From: Candidatus Levyibacteriota bacterium | GTDB taxonomy: Bacteria > Patescibacteriota > Microgenomatia > Levybacterales > UBA12049 | DNA length: 64,000 bases | Assembly: GCA_016432345.1 (NCBI GenBank) | Contig: CP066685.1 | Span: 496,236-560,235, forward strand | Direction of reading: 5' to 3' | In this document: positions 1-54,288 of the stretch, piece after piece | How the letters are laid out: each line of letters starts with the position of its first letter | Numbering within the stretch: the first letter of the stretch is position 1 | Notes under the pieces: model-generated | Databases searched by the model: none | What the model was told of the DNA's origin: nothing | The model's input: the letters and a program-made list of their open reading frames with translations, nothing else | Position numbers and translations under genes: made by a program

Positions 1-894
1 AAGGCGGATATTCATTGGCATACCATTGAAGAACAACTAAAATTTCCTCAAATTCTTAATAAAGAAAATATTGACCTGATGCATTTTCCCTACTTTTCTG
101 TTCCTCTTTTTTATAACAAACCTTTTGTTGTTACGATTCATGACTTAATTTTGCATCATTTTCCAACAGGCCGGGCTTCTACGCTTCCACTACCAGCATA
201 CTGGTTAAAACTATTTGTGTACAGGTTTATTTTGAAAAAATCGGCACAAAAAGCGCGAAGGATACTTACTGTGTCTTATGCAACAAAAGACGAGATTGTT
301 AAGCATTTGCATGTGTCTCAAGATAAAATTATCGTTACATACGAAGGAGTAGATACTAAATCTACAAATACCAAATACCAAATACCAAATACCAAATACT
401 TTTTGTATGTTGGGAATGCGTATCCACACAAGAATCTGGAGAGATTAATAGAAGCATCCACGAGAATCAAGCTAATACTAGTTGGTAGAGAGGATTATTT
501 CTATAAAAGACTAAAGGAGAAAGTAAAAAAAATGGGATTAGAAAAACAAATAGTTTTTTATGGATATGCGACTGACGAAGAACTTTCATTTTTATATAAA
601 AATGCTGAGGCACTAATTATGCCGTCTCTTATGGAAGGATTTGGCTTGCCAGTTTTAGAGGCAATGGCTAATAAATGTTTGGTTTTGGCATCAGATATTC
701 CGGCACATAGAGAAATAGCAGGAGATGCAGTAAGTTATTTTAACCCTCTAGATGTTAGAGATATAGAAAAAAAAATGCAGAACATTCATCCAGATGATAA
801 AGTTCAGAAAGGTTTTGATAGGGCAAAAATGTTTTCATGGGAGAGAATGGCAAAGGAAACTTTAAGTATATATGAAAGTTGCGTTAGTGTATGA
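1..894 (+). CDS. Glycosyltransferase family 1 (GT4-like, GT-B fold), 5' end cut by window edge
   Basis: Frame 1 is open from nt 1 with no stop before the ATG at 79, so the gene begins upstream of the window. The C-terminal half has GT1 hallmarks (FLYVGNAYPHKN, PSLMEGFGLPVLEAMA). It carries the (CAAATAC)5 array at 365-399. Confidence 0.85.
   Translation, partial: KADIHWHTIEEQLKFPQILNKENIDLMHFPYFSVPLFYNKPFVVTIHDLILHHFPTGRASTLPLPAYWLKLFVYRFILKKSAQKARRILTVSYATKDEIVKHLHVSQDKIIVTYEGVDTKSTNTKYQIPNTKYFLYVGNAYPHKNLERLIEASTRIKLILVGREDYFYKRLKEKVKKMGLEKQIVFYGYATDEELSFLYKNAEALIMPSLMEGFGLPVLEAMANKCLVLASDIPAHREIAGDAVSYFNPLDVRDIEKKMQNIHPDDKVQKGFDRAKMFSWERMAKETLSIYESCVSV
365..399 (+). repeat. Perfect heptanucleotide tandem array (CAAATAC)x5, 35 nt, in frame in a GT1 gene
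   Basis: Period-7 identity holds exactly from 365 to 399. It encodes NTKYQIPNTKY directly before the first beta-strand of the C-terminal Rossmann domain (FLYVG). Confidence 0.97.
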
Positions 895-1954
895 TCGAGT
901 AAATAAGTGGGGAGGGGCGGAGAGAGTTTTACTTACTCTTCATGAAATGTTTCCAGACGCTCCGTTATATACTTCTGTATATGATTCAAAGAAGGCGCCA
1001 TGGGCAGATATTTTTGATATTCGAACTTCGTTTTTACAAAAATTGCCGATTTCTTTCCATCACGAATACTACCCATTTTTAATGCCGTTGGCGTTTGAAG
1101 GTTTTTCGTTTGACGATTATGATTTAGTTATTTCTGTAACATCAGAGGCAGCAAAAGGAATTATTACTAAACCACATACTTTACATATTTGTTATTGTCT
1201 GACTCCGACTCGTTATCTGTGGAGTGGTTATGAAAATTATTTTAGAAATCCATTGTTTCAGATACTTTCTTATCCATCGGTTTCTTATCTTCGTGCATGG
1301 GATTTGGTTGCAGCAAAGCGGCCAGATGCGTATATTGCGATTTCGAAAGAAGTTCAAAATAGAATAAAAAAATACTACGATCGAGAATCAGAAGTAATAT
1401 ATCCACCTGTTGAAATACCAAATACCAAATACCAAATACCAAATACTGGCTTCTTTTTAGTTGTTTCACGACTTGTATCATATAAGCGGATTGATATTGC
1501 GATAGAAGCATGTAATAGACTCCGTTTGCCGCTTAAAATTGTAGGTGTAGGATCGGAAGAAAAAAGACTAAAACGAATTGCTGGTTCCACAATTGAATTT
1601 TTAGGAAACTTGACTGATAACGAGCTGGTAAGGTATTATAAAGCGTGTCTTGCGCTTATTTTTCCCGGCAATGAAGATTTTGGGATTGTAATGGGAGAGG
1701 CAAGTCTTTTTAGTAAACCTGTTATTGCATTTAAAGGAGGAGGCGCACTTGAGATTATTAGAGAAGGAAAGACAGGTGCATTTTTTTATCCTCAAACAGC
1801 GCAAGCGTTAACAGATTGTTTAATGATATTTAAATCTAAAAGTTTTAAGGATGAGATTATAAAAGATTGCGCAGTAAGGTTTGGCAAAGATAGGTTTAAA
1901 AAGGCATTTTTTGACATGATTGCTATGTTGTATAAAGAACATAGCAAAAAATAA
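872..1954 (+). CDS. Glycosyltransferase family 1 (GT-B fold)
   Basis: 360-aa ORF with an ATG start that overlaps the upstream gene. The C-terminal Rossmann half shows FFLVVSRLVSYKRID and FPGNEDFGIVMGEA. It carries a CAAATAC array at 1412-1446. Confidence 0.85.
   Translation: MKVALVYDRVNKWGGAERVLLTLHEMFPDAPLYTSVYDSKKAPWADIFDIRTSFLQKLPISFHHEYYPFLMPLAFEGFSFDDYDLVISVTSEAAKGIITKPHTLHICYCLTPTRYLWSGYENYFRNPLFQILSYPSVSYLRAWDLVAAKRPDAYIAISKEVQNRIKKYYDRESEVIYPPVEIPNTKYQIPNTGFFLVVSRLVSYKRIDIAIEACNRLRLPLKIVGVGSEEKRLKRIAGSTIEFLGNLTDNELVRYYKACLALIFPGNEDFGIVMGEASLFSKPVIAFKGGGALEIIREGKTGAFFYPQTAQALTDCLMIFKSKSFKDEIIKDCAVRFGKDRFKKAFFDMIAMLYKEHSKK
1412..1446 (+). repeat. Heptanucleotide tandem array GAAATAC(CAAATAC)x4, 35 nt, in frame in the adjacent GT1 gene
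   Basis: Perfect period-7 identity runs from 1413 to 1446. It encodes IPNTKYQIPNT directly before FFLVVSRL, the same structural position as 365-399. Confidence 0.97.
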
Positions 1955-3768: not shown

Positions 3769-5736
3769 ATGGATGATTTGCCAAAAATGGAACTTCACTC
3801 TCCAGAAATAACATTAGTAGATAAAAAGAAACGTTTTTCCACAATGAAGCCTAATAAAAAATTAGTATTTATAATACTTATTCCTTTTGTTCTTATTATA
3901 GCTTTAGTAGCTATTGCTATTGTGCCAGCGAAAAAAACATACTTTTCAGCTCAAAAAACGTATAAGCAAGCAAGGGTAGCATGGGACGCTATTAAAAAAC
4001 AAAACATAGATCTTGGAGAAGAAGAACTTAAAAAAACAAAGGTAAGTCTTGAAGATACAAAGAAGGAACTTGAAGGTTTGTCTTTTCTTCGATTTATTCC
4101 TATAGCAAGTTGGTACTACAATGATGCAAATCATTTGTTAAAGGTTGGACTTCATAGCATAGACGCTTCGTTTATTGTGGTTGATGCTATCAAACCATAC
4201 TCGGATATTTTAGGACTTAAAGGAAAAGGTGGCAGTTTTGTCATGGGGAGCGCCGAACAGCGAATTCAGACAGCAATTTTGACTATGGGTAAAATTACTC
4301 CGCGTATAGATGATGTGGCAGAGAATATTGCCTTGGCTAAAACCGAAATAGACGCTGTTGATTCTAATCATTATCCGGCTTTCTTAGGGTTAGGAAAACT
4401 AAATACACAACTTGCTCAAGCGAAGGAATTTATAGATGGAACAACTGTTTTTGTAAATCAAGCGCAGCCGCTTATTAAAGTGTTGCCTTCTCTTTTGGGA
4501 GAGTCTGAACAGAAAAAATATCTTATTTTATTCCAAAATGCCAACGAATTGCGTCCAACAGGGGGATTTCTTACTGCTTATGCTATTTTTAGTATTGATA
4601 AAGGCAAAATTACTGTTGAAAAATCTGATGATATTTATAATTTGGACAATACAATCCCAAATTCTAAAAAGCCAAAAGCGCCGGCCCCAATTCTTAATTA
4701 TCTTGTTGGTGTACCTCTTCTTAATTTACGTGATGCCAACTTATCGCCTGACTTTCTCGAATCAATAAAAACTTTTAAGAGTTTATATGAGTTTTCCAGT
4801 GTCAAAGAGAAAATTGACGGTATTATAGCTTTGGATTCAAATGTTTTAACATCCGTGATTAAAATTTTAGATGACGAGGTATGGGCTGGCGGGATGGAAT
4901 TTACCACAAAAAACGATCCTCGATGTAATTGTCCCCAGGCAATATATAAACTTGAAAGTCTTATTAGCACTCCAAAAAGTTTGGATTTACGAGTTACCTC
5001 ACTTGCTGCTGCGCAGGCGCAACGAAAAGATATTCTTGGTACTTTGTTATATTCAATTATGCAAAAAGCCTTAAAGTCTTCTCCTAAAAAGTACTGGGGC
5101 CCGCTAGTGCAAGATTTGATAACTCAAGCTAATGAGAAGCATGTTCTTTTTGCTCTTAATAATAAAGATGCGCAACGAGGTGTAGAGGCATTAAATATGG
5201 CAGGACAGATAAAAAATGCGGAGGGAGACTATTTCCATTTCAACGACACCAATCTTGGCGGCGCTAAATCAAACCTTTTTGTAAAAGAAACAGTTGATCA
5301 AGATATAAAGGTGGATGGCGATGGCACCATAACAAAGACGGTTACTGTTTTGTATAAAAATCCTTTTCCTCCTTCTGATTGTAATTTGGAAAGAGGCAAT
5401 TTATGTTTAAATGGAATTTTACGCGACTGGTTTCGTTTATATGTTCCAAAGGGAAGCGTACTTATAGATAGTAAGGGTTCGGAGGTAAAAGTAACTACCA
5501 TAGAAGACTTAAACAAGACTGTATTTGAAGGATTTTTAACTGTTCGCCCGCAAGGATCAGCAATATTAACATTAACATATAGCTTGCCATTTAAATTGAA
5601 AGCAGGATCTCCATTACCGCTTCTTATTCAAAAACAGCCTGGAACAGACAAGAATGAATATACAGTTAAAATAAATGGAAGAACTGTTAATACATTTCCA
5701 TTGTTGACAGACAGAGAGTTAGTTATTAAACGATAA
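3769..5736 (+). CDS. DUF4012-like membrane-anchored extracytoplasmic protein
   Basis: 655 aa with a single N-terminal TM segment (LVFIILIPFVLIIALVAIAIV). The motif LFQNANELRPTGGFLTAYAIF recalls the DUF4012 core. Such genes commonly sit beside sugar transferases. Confidence 0.6.
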   Translation: MDDLPKMELHSPEITLVDKKKRFSTMKPNKKLVFIILIPFVLIIALVAIAIVPAKKTYFSAQKTYKQARVAWDAIKKQNIDLGEEELKKTKVSLEDTKKELEGLSFLRFIPIASWYYNDANHLLKVGLHSIDASFIVVDAIKPYSDILGLKGKGGSFVMGSAEQRIQTAILTMGKITPRIDDVAENIALAKTEIDAVDSNHYPAFLGLGKLNTQLAQAKEFIDGTTVFVNQAQPLIKVLPSLLGESEQKKYLILFQNANELRPTGGFLTAYAIFSIDKGKITVEKSDDIYNLDNTIPNSKKPKAPAPILNYLVGVPLLNLRDANLSPDFLESIKTFKSLYEFSSVKEKIDGIIALDSNVLTSVIKILDDEVWAGGMEFTTKNDPRCNCPQAIYKLESLISTPKSLDLRVTSLAAAQAQRKDILGTLLYSIMQKALKSSPKKYWGPLVQDLITQANEKHVLFALNNKDAQRGVEALNMAGQIKNAEGDYFHFNDTNLGGAKSNLFVKETVDQDIKVDGDGTITKTVTVLYKNPFPPSDCNLERGNLCLNGILRDWFRLYVPKGSVLIDSKGSEVKVTTIEDLNKTVFEGFLTVRPQGSAILTLTYSLPFKLKAGSPLPLLIQKQPGTDKNEYTVKINGRTVNTFPLLTDRELVIKR

Positions 5737-26797: not shown

Positions 26798-27907
26798 ATG
26801 AAAATTCTTATTACAGGAGGAGGTCACTTTTCGCCAGCAATGGCAGTAATTGAGTCGTTGCCAAAAGGCATAAGCGTATTGATGGTGGGTCGAAAGTACT
26901 CATTTGAAGGCGACAACGCGCTATCTATTGAGTATATAGTATGTCAAGAAAGAGGTATTCCATTTATTGCATTATCAACCGGAAGATTACAACGTAAGTT
27001 TACAAAATATACAATTTCCTCTCTTTTGAAAATTCCATTTGGATTTTTTAAAGCACAAAAAATAATGCGTGATTTTAAGCCAGATGTGGTGTTGTCGTTT
27101 GGCGGATATATTTCGCTGCCAGTTGTTTTGGCAGCATATGCGTTTAGGACTCCTATTGTGGTGCATGAACAAACGCTTGAAGCAGGAATGGCAAATAAAA
27201 TTGCATCGTATTTTACGAAAAAAGTTTGTATTTCATGGGAATCATCAAGAAAGTTTTTTCCGAAAAAGAAAGTTGTATTAACGGGAAACCCGATTAGAAG
27301 ATTTAAGATTAAAGATTTAAGATTAAAGATTAAAGATGACGAGAAATTGCCGATTATTTATGTAACTGGGGGGAGTTCGGGGTCGCATGCGATTAACCTG
27401 TTGGTTGAAGGATGTATTGAAGGGCTTTTGGAAAATTTCATTGTATTTCATCAAACAGGCGATGCAAAAGAATTTAATGATTTTGAAAGACTTAATACAT
27501 TTAAAAAAACTTTAAAAAGCTCGTTGCAGAAGCGGTATATTTTAGAAAAATTTGTGCCAATGCAGAATGTTGGAGAGGTAATTAATCGAGCGGATCTAAT
27601 TATATCAAGATCGGGAATCAACACAATAACAGAGCTGTTATTTTTTGGTAAACCTGCAATACTTATTCCTATAACATTTTCTCAAAGAAACGAGCAGTTG
27701 AAAAATGCTACTTTTTTGCAAGAACACGGCTTGGCAAAAGTACTGGAACAAGAGACGACAACAAGCGAAACGCTTTATCAGGAAATTTTAGAGATGCTAA
27801 AGCAGAAAAACGAATATATGAAATCCGCAAAAGAGGCAAAAAAGCTTGTTATTCCAGATGCTCGAGAAAGAATACTTGCTGTACTGCAGCAAGTTGTGAA
27901 AAAATAG
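26798..27907 (+). CDS. murG: UDP-GlcNAc:lipid I GlcNAc transferase MurG
   Basis: It is a GT28 GT-B enzyme with ITGGGHFSPA, VHEQTLEAGMANK, LTGNPIR and VTGGSSGSHAIN. It contains the period-7 cassette at 27301-27335. Confidence 0.9.
   Translation: MKILITGGGHFSPAMAVIESLPKGISVLMVGRKYSFEGDNALSIEYIVCQERGIPFIALSTGRLQRKFTKYTISSLLKIPFGFFKAQKIMRDFKPDVVLSFGGYISLPVVLAAYAFRTPIVVHEQTLEAGMANKIASYFTKKVCISWESSRKFFPKKKVVLTGNPIRRFKIKDLRLKIKDDEKLPIIYVTGGSSGSHAINLLVEGCIEGLLENFIVFHQTGDAKEFNDFERLNTFKKTLKSSLQKRYILEKFVPMQNVGEVINRADLIISRSGINTITELLFFGKPAILIPITFSQRNEQLKNATFLQEHGLAKVLEQETTTSETLYQEILEMLKQKNEYMKSAKEAKKLVIPDARERILAVLQQVVKK
27301..27335 (+). repeat. Period-7 array (ATTTAAG ATTAAAG ATTTAAG ATTAAAG ATTAAAG), 35 nt, in frame in murG
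   Basis: There are five units in two variants. It encodes FKIKDLRLKIKD in the interdomain linker just before IIYVTGGSSG. Confidence 0.93.
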
Positions 27908-32854: not shown

Positions 32855-33061
32855 TTAGCGTAAGAGAAGATAGCCTTCAATAAGGATGCCGCTTGCAATA
32901 AGGAGTGAAACAAGCAGTATTATTACAATAATAAAAAAAGGCACGGGGATTTTGGTGGCGTTGTATGCTCTTCGGGCAGAATAGATAACTAATCCTAAAC
33001 ATATAAGGAGCAACAGAAAAAATAGGAAGATAAATGTGTGTAACAGGATGTATTGAATCAT
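32855..33061 (-). CDS. Small two-TM membrane protein
   Basis: 68 aa with two hydrophobic helices. Its ATG overlaps the stop of the upstream gene (ATGA), which suggests co-translation. Confidence 0.55.
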   Translation of the reverse strand: MIQYILLHTFIFLFFLLLLICLGLVIYSARRAYNATKIPVPFFIIVIILLVSLLIASGILIEGYLLLR

Positions 33062-33687
33062 ACTTTGTTATGACTACCAGCTTCGATAGTGATACTTTGG
33101 ATGGCATCTTCTATTTCCTGGGCGTTTTCCGGTGTTTTAAAGAAAAATGGTTCATCACGTTCTAATTTATGAAACCGCACCGTAACATTTTCGATTCGTA
33201 AATAGTCGTAAAGCAAATTTGATGGACTTCTATCGATTTCCTGCTGGTGTATTTGTTCTAAAAAAATAACTTCGGAATAAAAACCGGAAATGCGAAAAAA
33301 CCGTTTGTGCACAATTGATTTGTTGGTAACAATATAAAATTGATAGTACCACGAAAGAAATGTATAGAGTTCGATTAACAGTATGGTCGCCATACCGGCA
33401 ATTGTCGCAATAAGCAGAAGCGTTTGTTTATTTGCAAAAAGAGATGTGAAGTTAAGTGTATTAGTTACAACTAGGAAAAAAGCGGTAAAGATAAAAATTT
33501 CAGTTAATATCCGAGCAAGCATGGAAAGTAAATATGTTACCGGATGTTCCCGTTGAGTGCAAAACACATTTTCTCCCGGAGCGCATTTTACCAGCGGGAA
33601 ATCCTGGAGTCTTTTTCCTGATTTATCAAAAAGTACATGCGAAATACTTGTTTCTTTCTTTTGTTTGAAGCTGCCAATTATATCCAT
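33058..33687 (-). CDS. Membrane protein with bacterial PH (YdbS/YdbT-like, bPH_2) domain
   Basis: 209 aa. Two central TM helices are followed by YYQFYIVTNKSIVHKRFF...IDRSPSNLLYDY, which is typical of bPH_2. A good RBS (AAGGTGGA) lies 7 nt upstream of the ATG. Confidence 0.6.
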   Translation of the reverse strand: MDIIGSFKQKKETSISHVLFDKSGKRLQDFPLVKCAPGENVFCTQREHPVTYLLSMLARILTEIFIFTAFFLVVTNTLNFTSLFANKQTLLLIATIAGMATILLIELYTFLSWYYQFYIVTNKSIVHKRFFRISGFYSEVIFLEQIHQQEIDRSPSNLLYDYLRIENVTVRFHKLERDEPFFFKTPENAQEIEDAIQSITIEAGSHNKV

Positions 33688-33767: not shown

Positions 33768-36581
33768 ATGTTAAAACCAGTCACCTCGCAAGTTGATTTT
33801 CCCAAACTCGAGGAAGAAATTATACAGTTTTGGAAAATCAATAAAATTTTTGAAAAATCAGTTGCCAAAGAAGCGCCAAAAGGTAATTGGACATTTTTAG
33901 ATGGGCCGCCTTTTATTACAGGGCTTCCTCATTATGGTAGTTTGCTTTCTAGTATTCCCAAAGATTTATTTCCCCGTTTTAAAACCATGCAGGGGTATAG
34001 GGTTAGACGTGTTTGGGGTTGGGATTGTCATGGTCTTCCGGCGGAAAATAAAGTGGAAAACAAATTGAGTATTACCCGCAAAAAAGATATTGAAGAAAAA
34101 ATAGGAGTTAAAAAATTTATTGACGAATGTAAATTGTATGTTAAGGATGTGTCTTCGGAATGGGAATGGTATGTAGACCACGTTGGCCGCTGGGTTGATT
34201 TTAAAAATGCCTACAAAACCATGGACTTACCATATATGGAGACAGTGATGTGGGTATTTAAACAAATGTACGACAAGGGTTATATTTACAAAGGTCTTCG
34301 GGTGTCGCTTTATTGCCCACATTGCTCAACGCCAATATCAAACTTTGAGGTTGCGATGGATGTTGATAATTATAAAGAGATAACTGATGCGGCAACAACA
34401 TATAAATTTGAGTTGCAAGATGAACTAAAGACGTTTATTCTTGCTTGGTCAACAACTCCCTGGAATAAAATTGTTACTCCTGCGTTGGCAGTTAATCCAA
34501 AATTGACTTATGTAAAAGTTAAGCAAGGTAACGAAAATTATATTTTAGCTAAAACAACTCTAAAAATACTTACTGGAGATTACAAAATTGTGGAAGAATT
34601 TAAAGGGGCAAAACTTGTGGGCATGCAGTATGTTCCGCATTACGATTATTATCCAATCGAAAAAGGCAAACAAGCATTTGTGATTATTCCTGGTGATTTT
34701 GTTACAGCAGAAGAAGGCACAGGAGTTGTAACAATTGCTGCTTATGGGGAAGAAGATTTAAAAGCCATGCAGGAAAATAATATCCATATTGAAATGCATC
34801 TGGACGAAGAAGGAACAATCAAACAAGATGTAGCACTTTTTGGCGGGATGTACTATCTTAAGGCGAATAAAGCCGTCAACGAAGATTTGGCAAAGAGGGG
34901 TTTAATTTATAAAGACGAGCAGTTGCCTCACAATGTTCCATTATGTTGGCGGTGTCATACTCGTTTGTATTATGGGCCGCAGAATGCCTGGTACGTGAAT
35001 GTGCAGAAATTAAAAAAAGAAATGAAGGAAACAAATGAGACTACTAATTGGTTTCCCAAACATTTTAAATATGGCCGATTTTTAAAAAGCTTAGAAGCAG
35101 CGCCAGATTGGTGTATTTCAAGAAGTCGTTATTGGGGATCGCCTGTGCCGGTATGGGAGTGTACATGCGGACAGCGGATAGTACCCGGTTCAATTAGAGA
35201 ATTAGAAGAATTCTCCGGTAAAAAAATTACAGATTTGCACAAACCCGAAATTGACGAAGTAATTATTAAATGTTTATCATGCGGCAAGAATGCAAAACGG
35301 GTCACCGAAGTTTTGGATAGCTGGATCGAAGCAGGTTCTGCGTCGTTTGCCGAACGCCATTTTCCTTTTAATAAAAGCGTAAAACTTACCGATTTTTTCC
35401 CACCCGATTTTATTGTGGAATATACAGGACAAATCCGCGCCTGGTTTTATGTGTTGCATGTGATTACAAATGCTTTGTATAAATCAAACGCCTACAAAAA
35501 TGTTGTGGTAACAGGAGTTATTTTAGGGACCGATGGCAGGAAGATGAGTAAAAATTACGGCAATTATCCAGATCCGAAAGAAATGCTGCAAAAATATGGC
35601 GGTGATGCACTGCGACTTTACTTAATGGGAAGTCCTGTGATGCATGGAGAAGATATCCTTATTTCTGAAGAACAATACAAACAACAAGTTAAAGGCACCA
35701 TACTTATTTTGTGGAATGTGTACAATTTTTTCGTATCAAATGCGATCGTTGACCAGTATCAAGTGTTAAGTATAAAGTATAAAGTATCAGAGAATATATT
35801 AGATCAATGGATCGTTTCATTGCTACAGAAGTTGATAAAAGAAATAACAGATGCTTTAGAAAAATACGATACTATTTTGGCTATAAAAGAAGCAGAAGGA
35901 TTTGTTGGTGATCTTTCGACTTGGTACATCAGGCGAAGTAGAGATAGGGTGGGAGCTGCGGTAGAAAATAGTAAAGATAAAAGGGCGTTTTATGAAACAA
36001 CATATTATGTGTTAACAACTCTTTGTAAACTTCTTGCGCCCATTATGCCATTTATTACAGAAGAGATGTATAAAAATTTAACAGGGGAGGAATCGGTTCA
36101 TTTATCGGATTGGCCGCGAACAGATCAAAGATTAAAGATCAAAGATCAAAGAATAGAAATCGAAATGGAGCAAGGTATACAACTTGCGTCAAAAGTGCAT
36201 GCTTTACGAAAACAGACAAATATCAAAGTTCGTATCCCTCTTAGAAAATTATCATACAAAGGACCAGAGGAACTTATAAAAGAAGTAAAGAAGGTTGTTT
36301 TGGATGAGGTGAATGTATACGAATTAGTTTATGCGGGCAAGAGTGATAATTATGAAGTTTCTGGTGATACAAGTCAAAAAAATCAGGATATCGAAGCAGG
36401 AAAAGCGCGGGATATTATTCGAAGTATTCAAGAAGAGCGAAAAAAACTTGGCACCAGCCTTGATGAATATGTTGATGTTGTTATCGAATCCTGGCCAAAA
36501 GAATTTGAAAATACAATCAAAAAGAAAGCGCTAGTTAAAACGCTTATTAAAGGTAATCAATTTAACGTTGTTAGAATATGA
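33768..36581 (+). CDS. ileS: Isoleucine--tRNA ligase (type 2, eukaryote/archaeal-like)
   Basis: The sequence shows GPPFITGLPHYG (HIGH variant), KMSKNYGN (KMSKS), a CP1 editing domain and WCISRSRYWG. It contains period-7 cassettes at 35755-35789 and 36123-36157. Confidence 0.95.
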   Translation: MLKPVTSQVDFPKLEEEIIQFWKINKIFEKSVAKEAPKGNWTFLDGPPFITGLPHYGSLLSSIPKDLFPRFKTMQGYRVRRVWGWDCHGLPAENKVENKLSITRKKDIEEKIGVKKFIDECKLYVKDVSSEWEWYVDHVGRWVDFKNAYKTMDLPYMETVMWVFKQMYDKGYIYKGLRVSLYCPHCSTPISNFEVAMDVDNYKEITDAATTYKFELQDELKTFILAWSTTPWNKIVTPALAVNPKLTYVKVKQGNENYILAKTTLKILTGDYKIVEEFKGAKLVGMQYVPHYDYYPIEKGKQAFVIIPGDFVTAEEGTGVVTIAAYGEEDLKAMQENNIHIEMHLDEEGTIKQDVALFGGMYYLKANKAVNEDLAKRGLIYKDEQLPHNVPLCWRCHTRLYYGPQNAWYVNVQKLKKEMKETNETTNWFPKHFKYGRFLKSLEAAPDWCISRSRYWGSPVPVWECTCGQRIVPGSIRELEEFSGKKITDLHKPEIDEVIIKCLSCGKNAKRVTEVLDSWIEAGSASFAERHFPFNKSVKLTDFFPPDFIVEYTGQIRAWFYVLHVITNALYKSNAYKNVVVTGVILGTDGRKMSKNYGNYPDPKEMLQKYGGDALRLYLMGSPVMHGEDILISEEQYKQQVKGTILILWNVYNFFVSNAIVDQYQVLSIKYKVSENILDQWIVSLLQKLIKEITDALEKYDTILAIKEAEGFVGDLSTWYIRRSRDRVGAAVENSKDKRAFYETTYYVLTTLCKLLAPIMPFITEEMYKNLTGEESVHLSDWPRTDQRLKIKDQRIEIEMEQGIQLASKVHALRKQTNIKVRIPLRKLSYKGPEELIKEVKKVVLDEVNVYELVYAGKSDNYEVSGDTSQKNQDIEAGKARDIIRSIQEERKKLGTSLDEYVDVVIESWPKEFENTIKKKALVKTLIKGNQFNVVRI
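33838..33872. repeat. 35-bp direct repeat, copy 2 (native ileS codons 24-35, WKINKIFEKSVAKE)
   Basis: It is identical to 32773-32807. It lies in the conserved N-terminal region of IleRS, upstream of the PPFITGLPHYG (HIGH-type) motif. Confidence 0.95.
35755..35789 (+). repeat. Degenerate period-7 array (AGTATCA AGTGTTA AGTATAA AGTATAA AGTATCA), 35 nt, in ileS
   Basis: It has five units of consensus AGTRTYA. It encodes QYQVLSIKYKVS. Confidence 0.8.
36123..36157 (+). repeat. Period-7 array (GATCAAA GATTAAA GATCAAA GATCAAA GAATAGA), about 35 nt, in ileS
   Basis: It has four clear units and one degenerate unit. It encodes DQRLKIKDQRI and shares AGATTAAAGAT(T/C)AAAGAT (17/18 nt, same reading frame, peptide RLKIKD) with the murG array. 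Confidence 0.88.
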
Positions 36582-38099: not shown

Positions 38100-38144
38100 A
38101 AAGAATAATTTTTAATTTTTCACTTTAACTTTTAATTTATTTTT

Positions 38145-45215: not shown

Positions 45216-48200
45216 TTATAACATTTTCCTCATTTTAAGATAAGATAATCCTGTTGCTCCAAATAACAAAACCCCAGCAATCGGCAAAAAATTTATTTTA
45301 TTTTTTTCTTGCAGAGTTGGTTTATCTGCAGATTTGGATTCGACAGTTTGCTGATCTAATTTTGATTCTTTTTTGAGTTCTTCTTTTGGTTTTGGTTCTA
45401 TTTTTGCTCCCAGCACATTTTCTTTAAAGCCCGCTGCCGCGCCTTGTTCGGAAAATCCAATTGGCGTAGCGGCAATTTCGTTGGAGTAATCTCCTGGGGT
45501 ACATCCATTGCCCGCCCGTACTCTAAAATAATATGTCTGTCCGCCGGAGAGATTTTCTACCACAAAATTGGTTGTTCCTTTTCCTCCAATGTTGGGGTTG
45601 CCATACTGCAATTTTCCAGGCTCTGTTCCATAGGCAATAAGGTAATACGAAATTGGCCCCGCCCCTTCTTTCCATGATAGTGCGACGGTGTTGATGCCGG
45701 CAAAAGTGGAAGTGAGGGTAGGCGCGCTTTGTGGCTTTTCGTCGTTGCAAGTTGCAGCAGAGGTGGAGTTTGAAGATGTAGAAGATGAGGAACTAGAACT
45801 TGAAGCAGTTACTGTCGGTGTTGGTGTCGGAGTCGGAGTTGGAGTAGGTGTTGGTGTGGGAGTGAGCGTTGGGTCGCTGGCAAGGGTAATACTTCGTTCG
45901 TCGGTTACCTGCTCGGGCGAGCCGCGGGAAATAAGGCGGTAGTAGTAGGTTTTTCCAGGCAGCAAATCGGTGATTGTTACAGAATGGTTTTTTGTTTTTG
46001 TTGGTTTTTCGTCGGTTCCATTGTCGTATCCATATTTAGTTCCAGAGCCTTTGACTTTTTTTGACTGGCTGCCAAAAACAACGCGACTATACGATGGTCT
46101 ATCGGTTGTCCAGGTAACAGTAAAAGAAGTCGCGGTATTTTCGGCAACGGTTATTGACGTATCGTCAATTTTTGGGGCGATTTCATATTCTTCTGTGAGC
46201 GTGTCGCTTAGATTACCTGCAGTATCTTTTGCTACCGTTTTGAGTGTTACACTGCTGCCGTCAATTATAATTGGCGCAACGTAGATGAGTCTGGCGCTGG
46301 AGGTGGAAGGATCTGTTCCATCGAGGGTATAAAAAATGGTAGGTTTATTAGGTGCATCAAGACTTGTAATTTCAATTGATCGTGGTTTTAGATATTTATC
46401 TCCTGGAATGTCCACTGTAGGTTTGGTTGGAGGAATGCCATCTGTTGGAGTGGTAGTTTGTTGGTTATTCCATTTGTCTGATGAGATATCTTTAATGCCA
46501 GTTCCTGTTCCATTTCCTTTGAGGGTAACAATCGGTGTTTTTCCTGCGTCATTTGGTTCTGTTGTTTCTTCAATAGTTATTGTAACTTTGTTTTTCTCAT
46601 TGCCATCTCGTTTTGCGGTAACAACTTTGTATCCTTCAACATTAAAATCAGAATTATTGCTTGATTCATTTACTGTGTTCGCGTTTACATCCCGTACAAA
46701 AGTTACCTCAATTTTATCTATTTTGCCGTTGTTATTGGTATCAAGGGTTTTGGTGCTTTTTATTTGCGGTGGTGTGGTATCAGTTGGTGTTGTATCGTTG
46801 CTTTCGCCATTTTGTTTATATCCCAGAGAAAACGTCGCCGGCTCATCATTTTTTGTTTGGCTCGAAATTTTGTTTACAGTTGCGCTGCCAGTTGCTGTAT
46901 GTCGATACGTTTCAAGCTTAAATTGGTTTATGACAGCGCTTGTTGTTGCAACAGTAATGCTATATGTGTCGTTATTTGGTTTAGGTATTAGCAGCATTTT
47001 ATAGTCTGGACTTGTAGTTTCGCTTATTGGATCTTTAATGCCATGCTCTAGATAATAGATAGCGTTTGGTATATCGGTATAGGTGGTTGTGCCATTACTG
47101 CCTGCTTTTTGACCACTGCTATTTGTTAGATATATGTCAACATCTGGGTCTACAACAACTATTAGATACGAAAGATTCGTATTAGAAGGGATAAATCGTC
47201 TCATGGAAAGAAAAGTATCGTTGTATGAGGCTAAAGTTGTCCTCTCATCGTAAAAAGGATCGTTAATATCAAAAGTTGTTCCATTGATTCCCTTGGCAAC
47301 AATAAAATGTCCTGGTTCTTCAAGTATTACTGGATTATTACTATCTAATTGGTTTTTTAATTTAGTTTTGTCATTGTCGCCCCACACAAATTCTAAGGCA
47401 TCAAAATCAGTGATATTATTTACTGTTTTTGCAAGTTTGGATAAGTCGGCTATGGCTGCCCAATTTACTTTGCCTCGTATATAGCCACCATCGCCACCTT
47501 CATAATTTTTTAACCAAAGATTTAGAGTATCTGGTTGGAGATCAGATCCATCTGGCAATTTTTTAATACCATAGTAATTAAGTATCATTGCAGCCGATGT
47601 CATAGCACATCCCCAGCGATTGATTGTTGTTGCTTCTCCAGTTTTTGCCCAATCGGTTGCAGTGTCATATTCTAATCCCTGCCACGGCTCCGAAGTTTGC
47701 TTAAGTAGCGGAACATCGAGCGGAGAATCGATGTTCGTAACAACAATGTTATCAAACCAGACTTCTGAATCTGGATCTGCGCCAACGCTTGCTTGAAGAC
47801 CAATTGTTCCACCATCAAAATAAGGCGAAGAATCCTCCAATTTCCAGATTTCATCATTGTTAATAAATAATTTAATTACATTTTTAGAAAATTCTATTTT
47901 AAAATGGTATGTTTGGTTATCCTGAAAAGAATATGATTTTTGTTCTACTCGATAGTAACTTCCTATAACTTTTTGAAAGTATATAGTTGATCCGTAAGTC
48001 ATAAAGTCATACCAATTAGAGGAGTCTAAATACTTAAATAGGATGTTTCTATTAGCTATAGCTGTGTTTTTATATTCCATATCAAAGCTGTACGAGTATC
48101 CAATAAAGCCAGAAAGATCAAAATTGTTTGGAATAATTTCAGTTGTGCAACTTGGACCGTTTATTCTAATACCAGCCTTGCCATTTTCTATATTCCAAGT

Positions 48201-48404
48201 AGTAGGGATACCCCCGTACAAACAGGACTTTGATGTATTTGAGTATTGTGTGTTTCTTTTAACAGCCCAATTATTTAAATTTCCTGTATCAAAGTTTTCT
48301 TGGAATACTTTATGAGAGGCAAAGCTTTGTGAAGTAAAAAATAGACTAATAAAAGCCAAAAAAATAAAAACAAAAAGAAACCTGAGGGCCATCAGTTTCT
48401 TCAC
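45216..48404 (-). CDS. Large multidomain surface protein: signal peptide, LamG/ConA-like lectin, C39-like cysteine peptidase, Ig/FN3-like repeats, (TP)n/poly-Ser linker, FN3 and C-terminal anchor
   Basis: 1062 aa. The C39-like core carries Cys in RWGCAMTSAAMILNYYG and His in PGHFIVAKG. FYTLDGTDPS is chitobiase-C-like. TVTWTTDRPSYSRVVFG and LSWKEGAGPISYYLIAYG are FN3-like. The C-terminus LPIAGVLLFGATGLSYLKMRKML is a hydrophobic segment followed by a basic tail. Confidence 0.8.
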   Translation of the reverse strand: MKKLMALRFLFVFIFLAFISLFFTSQSFASHKVFQENFDTGNLNNWAVKRNTQYSNTSKSCLYGGIPTTWNIENGKAGIRINGPSCTTEIIPNNFDLSGFIGYSYSFDMEYKNTAIANRNILFKYLDSSNWYDFMTYGSTIYFQKVIGSYYRVEQKSYSFQDNQTYHFKIEFSKNVIKLFINNDEIWKLEDSSPYFDGGTIGLQASVGADPDSEVWFDNIVVTNIDSPLDVPLLKQTSEPWQGLEYDTATDWAKTGEATTINRWGCAMTSAAMILNYYGIKKLPDGSDLQPDTLNLWLKNYEGGDGGYIRGKVNWAAIADLSKLAKTVNNITDFDALEFVWGDNDKTKLKNQLDSNNPVILEEPGHFIVAKGINGTTFDINDPFYDERTTLASYNDTFLSMRRFIPSNTNLSYLIVVVDPDVDIYLTNSSGQKAGSNGTTTYTDIPNAIYYLEHGIKDPISETTSPDYKMLLIPKPNNDTYSITVATTSAVINQFKLETYRHTATGSATVNKISSQTKNDEPATFSLGYKQNGESNDTTPTDTTPPQIKSTKTLDTNNNGKIDKIEVTFVRDVNANTVNESSNNSDFNVEGYKVVTAKRDGNEKNKVTITIEETTEPNDAGKTPIVTLKGNGTGTGIKDISSDKWNNQQTTTPTDGIPPTKPTVDIPGDKYLKPRSIEITSLDAPNKPTIFYTLDGTDPSTSSARLIYVAPIIIDGSSVTLKTVAKDTAGNLSDTLTEEYEIAPKIDDTSITVAENTATSFTVTWTTDRPSYSRVVFGSQSKKVKGSGTKYGYDNGTDEKPTKTKNHSVTITDLLPGKTYYYRLISRGSPEQVTDERSITLASDPTLTPTPTPTPTPTPTPTPTVTASSSSSSSSTSSNSTSAATCNDEKPQSAPTLTSTFAGINTVALSWKEGAGPISYYLIAYGTEPGKLQYGNPNIGGKGTTNFVVENLSGGQTYYFRVRAGNGCTPGDYSNEIAATPIGFSEQGAAAGFKENVLGAKIEPKPKEELKKESKLDQQTVESKSADKPTLQEKNKINFLPIAGVLLFGATGLSYLKMRKML
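45813..45863 (-). repeat. Coding hexanucleotide repeat encoding (Thr-Pro)8-Thr linker, followed by a poly-Ser run
   Basis: TPTPTPTPTPTPTPTPT is encoded with varied synonymous codons. The adjacent SSSSSSSSTSS run is at about 45769-45810. Confidence 0.9.
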
Positions 48405-51041: not shown

Positions 51042-51992
51042 ATGAAGATAAGTTTTATTTCGACTGTTTACAATGAGGAGAAGACGATTGGATGGATGCT
51101 AGAGAGTTTGGCAAAACAGACGAGGATGCCAGACGAGATGATTATTGTAGATGGAGATTCAACCGACAGTACGCTGTCGGTAATTTTCAATTTTCAATTT
51201 TCAATTTTCAATCAAAACACAAAAAATAAATTTTCAAAAATAAAAATACTTACAAAAAAAGGGAATCGGGCGGTGGGACGAAATGAGGCGATAAGAAATG
51301 CGACAGGCGATATTATTGTATGTTCGGATGCGGGATGCCAGTTGGATAAGGATTGGGTGAAGAATATTGTGAAGCCGTTTGAAAATCCAAAAGTAGATGT
51401 TGTCGCAGGGTACTATGCAGCAAAGCCACAATCGATCTTTCAAAAATGCCTGGTGCCATATGTGCTTGTTATGCCAGATAAGATTGACCCTAAAAATTTT
51501 CTTCCGGCATCCCGCACAATGGCATTTAGAAAATCTATTTGGGAAAAAGTTGGTGGGTTTCCAGAAAGATACTCGCATAACGAAGATTATGTTTTTGCAA
51601 AGAAGTTAAAGCACATTGGAGTAAATATCGTTTTTGCCAAAGATGCCATTGTTTACTGGATGCCTCGAAAGAATCTAAAGCAAGCATTCATTATGTTTTT
51701 CCGCTTTGCCTTTGGCGACGCAGAAGCTCGTATTTTTCGCCCAAAAGTTTTTTTGATTTTCGTTCGTTATTTATTTGTATTTTTTCTCATTTTTTTACTT
51801 ATTGGTTTTCAACTATACGCTATACGCTATACGCTATACGCTATGTTTTTATTGTACGTGACGTGGTCTGTTTGGAAGAACTACAAATACGTTGCAGACT
51901 GGCGCGCAATCGTAATTTTGCCTATACTACAAATAACTGCTGATATTGCAGTAATTTTGGGAACGATATGGGGTATACAACACAGGCAATAA
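51042..51992 (+). CDS. Glycosyltransferase family 2 with C-terminal TM region
   Basis: The sequence shows ISFISTVYNEE, IIVDGDSTDST, GRNEAIRNA and CSDAG, with C-terminal hydrophobic helices. It carries cassettes at 51183-51213 and 51813-51844. Confidence 0.85.
   Translation: MKISFISTVYNEEKTIGWMLESLAKQTRMPDEMIIVDGDSTDSTLSVIFNFQFSIFNQNTKNKFSKIKILTKKGNRAVGRNEAIRNATGDIIVCSDAGCQLDKDWVKNIVKPFENPKVDVVAGYYAAKPQSIFQKCLVPYVLVMPDKIDPKNFLPASRTMAFRKSIWEKVGGFPERYSHNEDYVFAKKLKHIGVNIVFAKDAIVYWMPRKNLKQAFIMFFRFAFGDAEARIFRPKVFLIFVRYLFVFFLIFLLIGFQLYAIRYTLYAMFLLYVTWSVWKNYKYVADWRAIVILPILQITADIAVILGTIWGIQHRQ
51183..51213 (+). repeat. Perfect heptanucleotide array (AATTTTC)x4.4 in a GT2 gene
   Basis: Period-7 identity holds from 51183 to 51213. 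It encodes IFNFQFSIFN just after the DGDSTDST motif. Confidence 0.95.
51813..51844 (+). repeat. Perfect heptanucleotide array (CTATACG)x4.6 in the same GT2 gene
   Basis: Period-7 identity holds from 51813 to 51844. It encodes LYAIRYTLYAM within the C-terminal hydrophobic region. Confidence 0.95.
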
Positions 51993-53191: not shown

Positions 53192-54288
53192 AAATTGCAT
53201 TTTTTCATGAATTACCGTTTGGGGGGGCGCATCGCGTGGTTGTAGAATACGGAAAAATACTTTCCAAAAACCACGATGTCGATGTGTTTTATGTGGACAG
53301 GGAGGAAGAAAAAAATCTGGAGTCGATTTTTAATAAGTCTTATTTTTTTCGGTTTTCCCAAAAAAGCGGTCGTGGGTGGTGGGGGACACGTTTGTATAAC
53401 GATACTTTAGGGCTTTTTTTCTTGTCTATTTTGCATTGGCGGATAGCTCGGTTAATTGACGAGCAGAAATACGATTTTGTTTTTGTGCATCCGTCAAAAT
53501 TTACCCAAGCCCCTTTTGTGTTGCGGTTTCTTAAAAGCCCAATCATATATTTTTGCCAAGAGCCGCTTAGACTAGCATACGATCCATTTATATCAAGACT
53601 TCCAGACGTTTCGCTGCCAAAAATGTTATATGAGAAATCTGTGCGTTTTATGAGAAAAGTTATTGATAGGTCAAATGTTGGATTTTGTGATTTTATTTTG
53701 GTAAATTCGTCTTTTTCTAAAAAAACTATACAGCAAGCATATGGTAAAGATGCAACAGTTTGTTATTTGGGCGTAGATGAGAATAATTTTAAACAAATAC
53801 CAAGTAAAAATGAATACGATGTACTTTTTGTTGGACAAAAAATAGCTGTTGAGGGGTATGATTTATTGGAAGAGGCGTTGTCTTATTTTCCCAAAAAAAT
53901 AAAAGTAAAAGTTATTGAAAGAAATTTACAGGGAGAGGGGATAGCAGATAGACAACTTGCAGAAGAAATAAATAGCGCAAAAATTGTTGTGGCTTTAAGT
54001 CGAAATGAACCATTTGGATTAACTGTTTTGGAGGCAATGGCCTGTGGCGCGCCGGTTGTTGCGGTAAAAGAAGGAGGATATATTGAGACAGTTATAGATG
54101 GGGAGACAGGATTTTTAATTGACAGAAATCCAAATGAGTTGTATGAAAAAATTAGTATACTTCTTGCAGATGGAAAGTTAAGAGAAAGATTTGGAGAATA
54201 TGGCAAGCATCATGTTTTACAAAATTGGACATGGGAAAAAAGTGTCGAGAGATTTTTAAAAATAATTTCGCAAGGAGGGGAAAAATAA
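53188..54288 (+). CDS. Glycosyltransferase family 1 (GT-B)
   Basis: The sequence shows VLFVGQK and SRNEPFGLTVLEAMACGAPVVA (E-x7-E region). Confidence 0.85.
   Translation: MKIAFFHELPFGGAHRVVVEYGKILSKNHDVDVFYVDREEEKNLESIFNKSYFFRFSQKSGRGWWGTRLYNDTLGLFFLSILHWRIARLIDEQKYDFVFVHPSKFTQAPFVLRFLKSPIIYFCQEPLRLAYDPFISRLPDVSLPKMLYEKSVRFMRKVIDRSNVGFCDFILVNSSFSKKTIQQAYGKDATVCYLGVDENNFKQIPSKNEYDVLFVGQKIAVEGYDLLEEALSYFPKKIKVKVIERNLQGEGIADRQLAEEINSAKIVVALSRNEPFGLTVLEAMACGAPVVAVKEGGYIETVIDGETGFLIDRNPNELYEKISILLADGKLRERFGEYGKHHVLQNWTWEKSVERFLKIISQGGEK

Follow-up and report, generated by a model that had tools for sequence, protein, structure and literature searches.

Two neighbouring glycosyltransferase genes with heptamer arrays

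The stretch of DNA analysed here, referred to as the window, comprises 64,000 nucleotides (nt) of contig CP066685.1 from an uncultured Candidatus Levyibacteriota bacterium (assembly GCA_016432345.1, positions 496,236 to 560,235 of the forward strand). It opens with two neighbouring glycosyltransferase (GT) genes on the plus strand, each of which carries a short tandem array of the heptanucleotide CAAATAC in the hinge between its two domains, and these arrays are the subject of this report. The first gene, GT1 (1..894), encodes a GT4-family (GT-B) enzyme as judged by translation and Pfam, with its 5′ end lost at the window edge; Glyco_transf_4 covers residues 9-120 and Glycos_transf_1 residues 127-270. 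The second gene, GT2 (872..1954), overlaps the end of GT1 and encodes another GT4-family (GT-B) protein of 360 amino acids (aa), assigned through Pfam and an AlphaFold2 model. GT1 and GT2 serve only as labels for these two genes, and "GT2-family" denotes a separate family of GT-A glycosyltransferases. Orthologues of GT1 in Levybacteria are 60-74% identical, and the GT2 protein is 100% identical to an NCBI protein from a Candidatus Levyibacteriota metagenome-assembled genome (MAG), located on a 762,565-bp contig.

Array 1 (365..399, plus strand) is a perfect (CAAATAC)5 in the GT1 hinge, encoding (T)NTKYQIPNTKY, and array 2 (1412..1446, plus strand) is GAAATAC(CAAATAC)4 in the GT2 hinge. Tandem Repeats Finder (TRF) scores array 1 at 100% matches and reports array 2 as 1413-1446, with 4.9 copies and again 100% matches. 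The two 35-nt arrays are identical at 34 of 35 positions, and an exact match of 35 nt, AAATAC(CAAATAC)4T, is common to the two loci (366-400 and 1413-1447), which bears out the near-identity that the original prediction had pointed out. The 14-mer CAAATACCAAATAC, with at most one mismatch, occurs 8 times in the window against 0.11 expected, a count reached in none of 100 shuffles. Both arrays are in frame and are read in different codon phases: the translation across the GT1 hinge is ..VDTKS TNTKYQIPNTKY FLYVG with the array beginning at codon position 2, and that across the GT2 hinge is ..YPPV EIPNTKYQIPNT GFFLVV with the array beginning at codon position 1. The array peptides are internal (residues 122-133 and 181-192), derive from five units and contain the heptad QIPNTKY, and by Pfam both arrays fall between Glyco_transf_4 (the N-terminal domain) and Glycos_transf_1 (the C-terminal domain). 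The AlphaFold2 model of GT2, built with 40 orthologues, has a predicted local distance difference test (pLDDT) score of 89.2 and a predicted template modelling (pTM) score of 0.87; in it residues 181-193 are coil, with a block pLDDT of 75, immediately before strand 194-198 (FFLVV). The original prediction also put the arrays directly ahead of the first beta-strand in the C-terminal domain, and this is confirmed by translation and Pfam and, for GT2, by the model. It is equally correct that gain or loss of a single unit would shift the frame. A simple sequence repeat in a promoter or coding region, with a unit not divisible by three in the coding case, is one of the marks of a contingency locus, and the perfect, in-frame 7-nt arrays of both genes show it.

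The two host genes are otherwise dissimilar, as had been claimed. BLASTP aligns only their C-terminal domains, at 38% identity over 133 residues with the repeat peptide included. Paralogy as the source of the shared arrays was rejected on these grounds: the N-terminal domains cannot be aligned and the C-terminal domains are 38% identical, against 34 of 35 positions in the arrays. Insertion of a palindromic element was rejected as well, since the arrays are direct tandem repeats.

According to Pfam, the two GT4 genes adjoin NTP-transferase, Bac_transf and DUF4012 genes, and a second glycan cluster at 50-57 kb includes a flippase and a Wzy_C polymerase-type gene. These families and the gene context suggest that GT1 and GT2 act on a surface or host-interaction structure.

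An old cassette shared by both hinges

One comparison set consists of the window and 80 orthologous GT2 loci, the best of whose orthologues are 62-71% identical; L-numbers denote loci or contigs and P-numbers proteins. Protein alignments reveal heptad-coded hinges in many GT2 orthologues (NTKYQIP, NTKYKIQN, KSQISNKSQ) and in many GT1 orthologues (ITNSKSQITNKSQNTKYEIPNTKY and similar). The hinges of GT1 fall into two main length groups, at 35 and 42 aa, which differ by 7 aa or three units. When contigs with both genes are laid out in heptamer register, a cassette common to GT1 and GT2 emerges, consisting of an A array of 4 x NAAATNN, the tetranucleotide CAAA, the junction unit TAAATCNN and a B array of about 4 x NAAATAC. 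The cassettes of the two genes match unit for unit in L082 and recognisably in L209 and L219, and the GT2 hinge is 75 nt long in all three. At the GT1 junction the window has TAAATCTA (357..364, plus strand), a relic of the junction unit, where L082 has TAAATCCA and L209 has TAAATCAA.

The window genes carry reduced versions of this arrangement. The GT1 hinge retains the junction relic followed by the B array, which is array 1. The GT2 hinge consists of the first A unit (GAAATAC) and four B units; relative to the cassette it has lost exactly 33 nt (21+4+8), in frame. The window arrays are thus homologous B arrays of the cassette, and their five copies were inherited rather than recently expanded. 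As the cassette is shared by GT1 and GT2 in several Levybacteria species, the copy between the genes is older than the divergence of these species. The original prediction had argued for copying or templated insertion over two independent expansions; copying is supported by the same unit-by-unit cassette in L082, L209 and L219, whereas a recent insertion is not, the cassette being common to several species. On the strength of these alignments, the two arrays are probably the surviving B arrays of an old heptanucleotide cassette copied between adjacent genes before the sampled species diverged.

The units need not agree within a genome. L082 has CAAATTC in GT1 and AAAATAC in GT2, and the GT1 unit of L084 is of the AAGCTCA type; homogenisation between the two genes has therefore not continued. 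In L081, a contig from a different species, GT1 is absent upstream of GT2 and a MerR-family gene is found there instead, so that the GT2 array persists without its neighbour. The same contig has two more heptamer arrays, (GAAATTG)3.9 at 1-27 and (ACCTACA)4.9 at 409-442.

Turnover of units at constant length

Within an array the units are uniform, and between species they differ: CAAATCT x4 in L219, CAAATAT and AAAATAC x4 in L082, and CAAATAC x4 in the window. Despite these differences the copy number is unchanged across species, and the B array has about four units in five species. Species-specific uniform units at a constant copy number amount to concerted evolution, which means that slippage or conversion acts on the tracts over evolutionary time. 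The array of L081 is identical to that of the window; its GT2 gene is 73-74% identical to the window gene at the amino acid level and 71.6% at the nucleotide level, and third codon positions agree at 53% of all aligned codons and 57% of conserved residues.

The same pattern is found in a gene that the cell cannot do without. In Levybacteria the MurG hinge is a two-heptad duplication; in any one species its halves resemble each other, and from species to species they differ (YRISNIE/YRISNKK, FPISNFQ/FPISNEK and FQISNFK/FQISNER in an alignment of orthologues; FKIKDLR/LKIKDDE in the window). The compared segment keeps a constant modal length of 34 aa. Since murG is essential, a frameshift in it cannot be a useful OFF state, and the dynamics of such arrays do not require a switching function.

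Period-7 arrays in the window and in relatives

TRF detects six further period-7 arrays in the window, and every array that lies within a gene is in frame. Two are perfect and belong to a single GT2-family (GT-A) glycosyltransferase gene on the plus strand: (AATTTTC)4.4 at 51182..51212 and (CTATACG)4.6 at 51813..51844, the latter in the hydrophobic C-terminal part. The others are imperfect. A GATTAAA/GATTTAA array of 6.4 copies (27292..27337, plus strand) encodes the FKIKDLR-LKIKDDE segment of the MurG hinge. A class I aminoacyl-tRNA synthetase gene on the plus strand contains an AGTATAA array of 4.7 copies between the catalytic and anticodon-binding domains (35755..35787) and an AGATCAA array of 4.4 copies (36122..36152). 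A degenerate TAATTTT array of 4.9 copies (38106..38138) is intergenic. The unit CAAATAC forms arrays at two sites in the 64 kb, and the remaining arrays have different units. As a heptamer it occurs 26 times, 17 on the plus strand and 9 on the minus strand. The single CAAATAC in a third GT4 gene (53794..53800, plus strand), once suggested as a seed or relic of the arrays, is a chance occurrence at this frequency and lies outside the feature.

Perfect period-7 arrays with at least 3.5 copies number four in the window, and none appeared in 100 dinucleotide shuffles. The other periods from 2 to 15 yield no perfect array of this size except for one ATT run. Period 7 is the sole enriched tandem period in the window, which agrees with the excess of long heptameric simple sequence repeats (SSRs) described for bacteria (Mrazek 2007).

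In relatives the preference recurs, with a patchy distribution. When the window and the 80 orthologous loci are taken together, 38 of the 61 tandem arrays of at least 3.5 copies have period 7; the window genome, one Woesebacteria locus and two Daviesbacteria loci are rich in them, and most loci have none. Array-rich genomes include that of the window and those of L024, L067, L073 and L082. A census over 1.33 Mb found 71 period-7 arrays, and 58 of them (82%) fall within stretches of 150 aa or more that lack stop codons, in departure from the predominantly intergenic location of dispersed heptamer families. The arrays measure 21 to 35 nt, and their number declines abruptly beyond 35 nt. Among 51 host open reading frames (ORFs), 23 belong to GT4 and 4 to the GT2-family. 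Hypermutable tracts of contingency systems are expected to gather in contingency genes and to be rare in housekeeping genes; the arrays here also lie in MurG and a class I aminoacyl-tRNA synthetase in the window and, in relatives, in PolA, Fpg, RecO, DNA ligase, an M50 peptidase and two further synthetase-type genes (a class I Trp/Tyr-type synthetase and a B3_4-domain protein). Array purity is 89% in GT4 genes and 88% in other hosts (p=0.65), and the contrast in purity between glycan and housekeeping genes seen in the window is not significant in this larger set.

The arrays in GT4 ORFs favour one place: 21 of 25 lie at a relative position of 0.41-0.61, which is the hinge. Measured from the P178 codon to the L196 codon, the GT2 hinge is 51-57 nt long in most orthologues, including those of Chloroflexota and Gemmatimonadota. 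The window hinge, at 51 nt, is exactly as long as that of orthologues in other phyla that lack an array, so its array takes up the existing hinge length without adding to it. Period 7 gives the best autocorrelation in 12 of 81 GT2 hinges, and the units are unrelated (among them TGGAAAT x8, ATCAAAA x7, TCAGTCG, ACATCGG, TTCAATT). The hinge length is divisible by three in 80 of the 81. The exception, L077 (10440-10760), has a 26-nt hinge with no array; instead of one continuous gene it has two overlapping ORFs (..VIFPSCKT* and MQNLKEYYLYVG..), which could encode separate N- and C-domain polypeptides or be a pseudogene.

A scan of metagenomes with (CAAATAC)3 returned at least 80 loci, mostly from unrelated organisms with GC contents of 0.22-0.63. 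Among the matches listed, only L101, L116 and L122 are GT hinges, and none is an allele of the window genes.

Two other cases of recurrent units were encountered. In L073 (Daviesbacteria) TCAGTCG and its complement TGACGAC occupy three sites (2536-2599, 5689-5713 and 10578-10602); one array has 9.1 copies, two have the 3′ flank AAAGTC in common and one site is the GT2 hinge, making this an independent case of a single unit reused at several places. (AATTAAA)n recurs in unrelated Patescibacteria loci (L021:12588, L041:7734, L060:3399 and 15553, L061:12891) with a left flank that is mostly ..TGGG, which suggests a conserved gene or element bearing the array.

Length variants and assembly breaks

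A contingency locus is recognised by a polymorphic repeat number with ON and OFF alleles. No allele frameshifted by a change in copy number was seen among 81 orthologues, about 20 array-bearing alleles and 13 same-species contigs, which are consensus sequences; the consensus of a MAG represents the majority allele only and is a weaker test for variants than isolates would be. Arrays are identical across 10 contigs of one species and 3 of another, from different samples, a perfect (AAATCTC)4.6 among them. Within protein clusters at 90% identity, full-length members are equal in length. The truncated members P0252, P0253 and P0278 were considered as OFF alleles and rejected, as their contigs are identical to the others into the array and then pass into unrelated DNA. 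P0260 and P0261 were rejected too: they are split at a poly-A run in a gene with no array. The three contigs with joins, L206 (at about 1640), L207 (about 845) and L208 (about 640), are short and metagenomic; they match Levybacteria GT1 or GT2 into the heptamer array and then continue in unrelated DNA, which in L208 is a GT-A gene. These joins are either assembly chimeras at shared arrays or products of ectopic recombination, and chimeras are the simplest explanation.

The window strain is present in the Logan k=31 assemblies of eight runs, with 0 mismatches over up to 12.3 kb; the runs are SRR12113385, SRR12113419, SRR12113422, SRR12113424, SRR12113425, SRR12113429, SRR12113431 and SRR4343430. 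At the GT2 array all five independent k=31 contigs start at 1418, a break that is fully explained because the 35-nt two-copy match is longer than k. Over the final 29 nt of array 2 and across its right-hand junction, these five contigs agree with the window without a mismatch. A look-up of the exact GT2 protein returned no record, which the break within the array explains. At the (CTATACG) array all three independent contigs start at 51815 or 51816, and at the (AATTTTC) array all six end at 51207 (four runs) or 51197 (two runs), and the opposite ends of these contigs are scattered. In simulation, a longer allele coexisting in the population, or a longer copy of the same array elsewhere, reproduces the break at 51815 exactly. 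The (AATTTTC) ends are reproduced only approximately, and no clean whole-unit variant matches them. The breaks may reflect heterogeneity within the population.

Origin and maintenance of the arrays

The reading that we consider most probable, with somewhat better than even confidence, is that a heptamer microsatellite cassette, copied long ago between adjacent GT genes, has persisted in a permissive hinge over a long time and homogenises itself, within limits set by the reading frame, the need for a stop-free unit and the length of the hinge. On the same footing, the cassette would be one instance of a general heptamer-repeat habit of these Patescibacteria. A microsatellite that is tolerated and renews itself is a likelier account of the arrays than a dedicated on/off switch.

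The mechanism may be pictured as follows. Tandem repeats would arise far more often at period 7 than at other periods in these Patescibacteria, possibly through slippage during replication in a favoured 7-nt register, a cause that Mrazek et al. 2007 put forward for bacteria generally (as summarised in PMC4692102). Within genes a new array would survive under three conditions: no phase of the unit may contain a stop codon; the net length must keep the frame, so that changes would be fixed in steps of three units (21 nt, 7 aa); and the site must tolerate any sequence, as domain hinges and loops do. Once established, an array could stay pure through repeated slippage or conversion, that is, by concerted evolution, while selection on the reading frame and hinge length would hold the copy number. 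For the ancient copy between neighbouring genes we infer ectopic conversion, in a direction that is likewise conjectural.

Several observations weigh against this interpretation. The array lies in a 39-nt run identical between L081 and the window, the longest such run in the gene, and DNA conserved to this degree may also point to selection for the repeat as such. Glycan genes contain all four perfect arrays of the window; those that are imperfect lie in housekeeping genes or between genes. The k=31 contigs of the window strain break inside every perfect array that they reach, and a simulation with a single allele produces no break at (CTATACG) or (AATTTTC); such breaks hint at heterogeneity of length or sequence in the population, a lead that is real but ambiguous. 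The locus set is biased towards glycan gene clusters, every locus being centred on a GT gene, which inflates the GT share among the hosts. The slippage that we propose as the reason for the preference for seven nucleotides is a putative mechanism.

The arrays could instead be true contingency loci, as the original prediction supposed, although we regard this as unlikely. Perfect 7-nt tracts would then be under selection for mutability, and a change of one unit would toggle GT1, GT2 and the GT2-family gene to give a variable surface glycan on an episymbiotic bacterium of the Candidate Phyla Radiation (CPR), for example in phage evasion or host adaptation. The unit length, the perfection and frame of the arrays and their location in glycan-cluster genes are what such a system would show; array DNA is much better conserved than the gene as a whole, every one of the four perfect arrays in the window belongs to a glycosyltransferase gene, and the k=31 contigs break at all perfect arrays reached, at (CTATACG) exactly as predicted for a coexisting longer allele. 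A precedent is documented in the AAGACTC variable number tandem repeat (VNTR) of NeuO (PMC3046976). The tests that were run do not support this architecture. No copy-number frameshift was found in the consensus alleles surveyed, and the truncated cluster members are joins to unrelated DNA rather than unit changes. The copy number is identical across species, at only 5 units compared with 2-93 in NeuO. Arrays of this type, evolving in concert in the same way, are present in essential genes; purity is no higher in GT genes; and the one hinge that is out of frame has no array.

A broader variant is slightly less probable again. Here Levybacteria-type Patescibacteria would have a peculiarity of replication or repair that makes and re-homogenises 7-nt arrays, the perfect arrays in the hinges of surface-glycan glycosyltransferases would be the first contingency loci (ON/OFF or rheostat) described for the CPR and would give these tiny episymbionts a variable surface, and the two-gene cassette would be a selected switch module and not a tolerated microsatellite.

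Functional tuning of the hinge is improbable. The heptad peptide would be selected as a flexible spacer, and steps of 7 aa would adjust GT-B domain closure or activity, a rheostat as in NeuO. The GT1 hinge clusters of 35 and 42 aa and the 75-nt GT2 hinge of three species suit this idea, as does the coil of lower pLDDT, and NeuO activity scales with heptad number (PMC3046976). The peptides are, however, unrelated between lineages, being encoded by TGGAAAT, TCAGTCG, ACATCGG and other units; the window genes read the repeat in different phases; conservation is found in the DNA and not in the protein; and array-free orthologues work with a hinge of 51-57 nt.

Active or recent copying has still less to recommend it. 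It would be a templated or recombinational process, such as ectopic gene conversion between the arrays or a mobile mini-cassette, now spreading identical arrays between genes of the genome. The 35-nt stretch shared by GT1 and GT2 invites this reading, units are reused elsewhere (TCAGTCG at three sites in L073, AATTAAA twice in L060), and in L206-L208 the transition to unrelated DNA comes precisely within heptamer arrays. Pairs of arrays that have the same unit in one locus are also in excess, with 5 observed and 1.7 expected; this enrichment is modest, 69 of 2000 permutations reaching 5, and the three contigs are most simply chimeric. Moreover, a cassette common to both genes in several species makes the copy ancient, the different units of the two genes in L082 and L084 exclude ongoing homogenisation between them, and the other arrays of the window all differ in unit.

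An assembly or sequencing artefact is very nearly negligible: short-read assemblers do mishandle repeats and the k=31 contigs do break at the arrays, but both ORFs are intact and in frame, the same array is found in L081, which was assembled independently and comes from another species, the end and right junction of array 2 recur in five independent k=31 contigs, and homologous arrays exist in dozens of assemblies.

Other repeats in the hinges and in the window

The same hinges harbour a second kind of repetitive DNA. GC-rich palindromic or hairpin segments lie in frame in the hinges of AT-rich genomes, in GT2 of L013, L019, L023, L025, L061, L066, L067 and L076 and in the GT1 orthologues P0129, P0131, P0139, P0148 and P0225. 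Examples are CCTCCTTCGCCAAGGCTTCGGCGGGCAAG, which encodes ..SSFAKASADKQ.., and hairpins such as ATTCCTGCGAAAGCAGGAAT; some of them break up a heptamer array. The core GCCAAGGCTTCGG recurs in each of L023, L061 and L073, and five other loci have it with 1 mismatch. These inserts look like small in-frame selfish elements.

The sole sizeable tandem repeat of the window that is not a heptamer is a hexamer/dodecamer repeat, GTCGGA (45813-45863, 8.3 copies, 79% matches), inside a 1062-aa ORF on the minus strand (45216..48404). A perfect 35-nt direct repeat, TCAATAAAATTTTTGAAAAATCAGTTGCCAAAGAA, occurs at 32773-32807 and 33838-33872, 1065 nt apart. The pair flanks a minus-strand ORF (33058..33687) and may stem from duplication of a gene start or promoter, or mark the two ends of a small insertion.

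Significance and comparison with known repeat systems

If the favoured reading of a tolerated heptamer cassette is true, the arrays are a clean natural example of a non-triplet microsatellite living long inside genes, in which permissive hinges are filled, changes come only in steps of three units, copy number is kept and units are re-homogenised in each species, even in the essential MurG. If the arrays switch, they would constitute a phase-variation system for CPR surface glycans, with a bearing on the dealings of episymbionts with hosts and phages. There is also a practical side. The arrays create identical stretches of at least 30 nt in different genes and can break or mis-join short-k CPR assemblies (six to eight runs and three apparently chimeric contigs here), and they inflate the apparent variability of hinges in protein alignments. 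A literature search found no published report of in-frame heptamer arrays in CPR genomes.

The closest parallel is the poly-psi tract of NeuO, an enzyme of the E. coli K1 prophage CUS-3, which is a heptanucleotide contingency VNTR of AAGACTC with 2-93 copies (PMC3046976). It begins 2 nt after the start codon and is polymorphic, with many OFF alleles among isolates and an activity that scales with heptad number (PMC3046976). Both systems place a 7-nt coding repeat in the gene of a surface-glycan enzyme, three units make up one heptad in each, and full-length protein is produced from only one residue class of copy number modulo 3; the encoded peptide is disordered in both. In contrast to the N-terminal and highly variable NeuO tract, that of the window is an internal domain hinge of 5 units whose copy number is conserved across species and samples. 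OFF alleles were not seen in its consensus sequences, and essential genes have tracts of the same type.

Heptameric repeats are known from other bacteria, and those of Calothrix PCC7601 are the STRR sequences. PMC4692102, citing Mrazek et al. 2007, describes heptameric SSRs as over-represented in bacteria and reports a proposal of polymerase-footprint slippage with a 7-nt register; the families named there are GGGAATC in Xanthomonas, GGGGA(C/T)T in Nostoc and three tandemly repeated heptanucleotides of Calothrix PCC7601. Beggiatoaceae contain TAACTGA repeats (PMC4679880). As in these families, period 7 is prominent among the long SSRs of the window and its relatives, units are lineage-specific and a unit may recur at several sites of one genome. 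The families of Xanthomonas, Nostoc, Calothrix and Beggiatoa are described as mainly intergenic, often G-rich or built on a single unit, and have suggested regulatory roles. The arrays described here are 82% within ORFs and in frame, with diverse A/C-rich units, lengths of 35 nt or less and a CPR host.

Two further systems resemble the arrays in their location. Borg elements have perfect nucleotide tandem repeats within ORFs, with unit lengths divisible by three (PMC9879509). Like them, the heptamer arrays leave ORFs undisrupted, create disordered protein segments, evolve fast and are genome-specific. Unlike them, they have a 7-nt unit and keep the frame by total length only, every single-unit change being a frameshift. 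The palindromic elements of Rickettsia, said to have been described by Ogata et al. in 2000, are reportedly about 100-150 nt long and inserted in frame in protein genes. They are alike in being repetitive DNA that persists in coding sequence at structurally permissive sites, but the arrays are tandem heptamers and not palindromic, and the resemblance to the Rickettsia elements fits the GC-rich hairpin inserts of the same hinges better.

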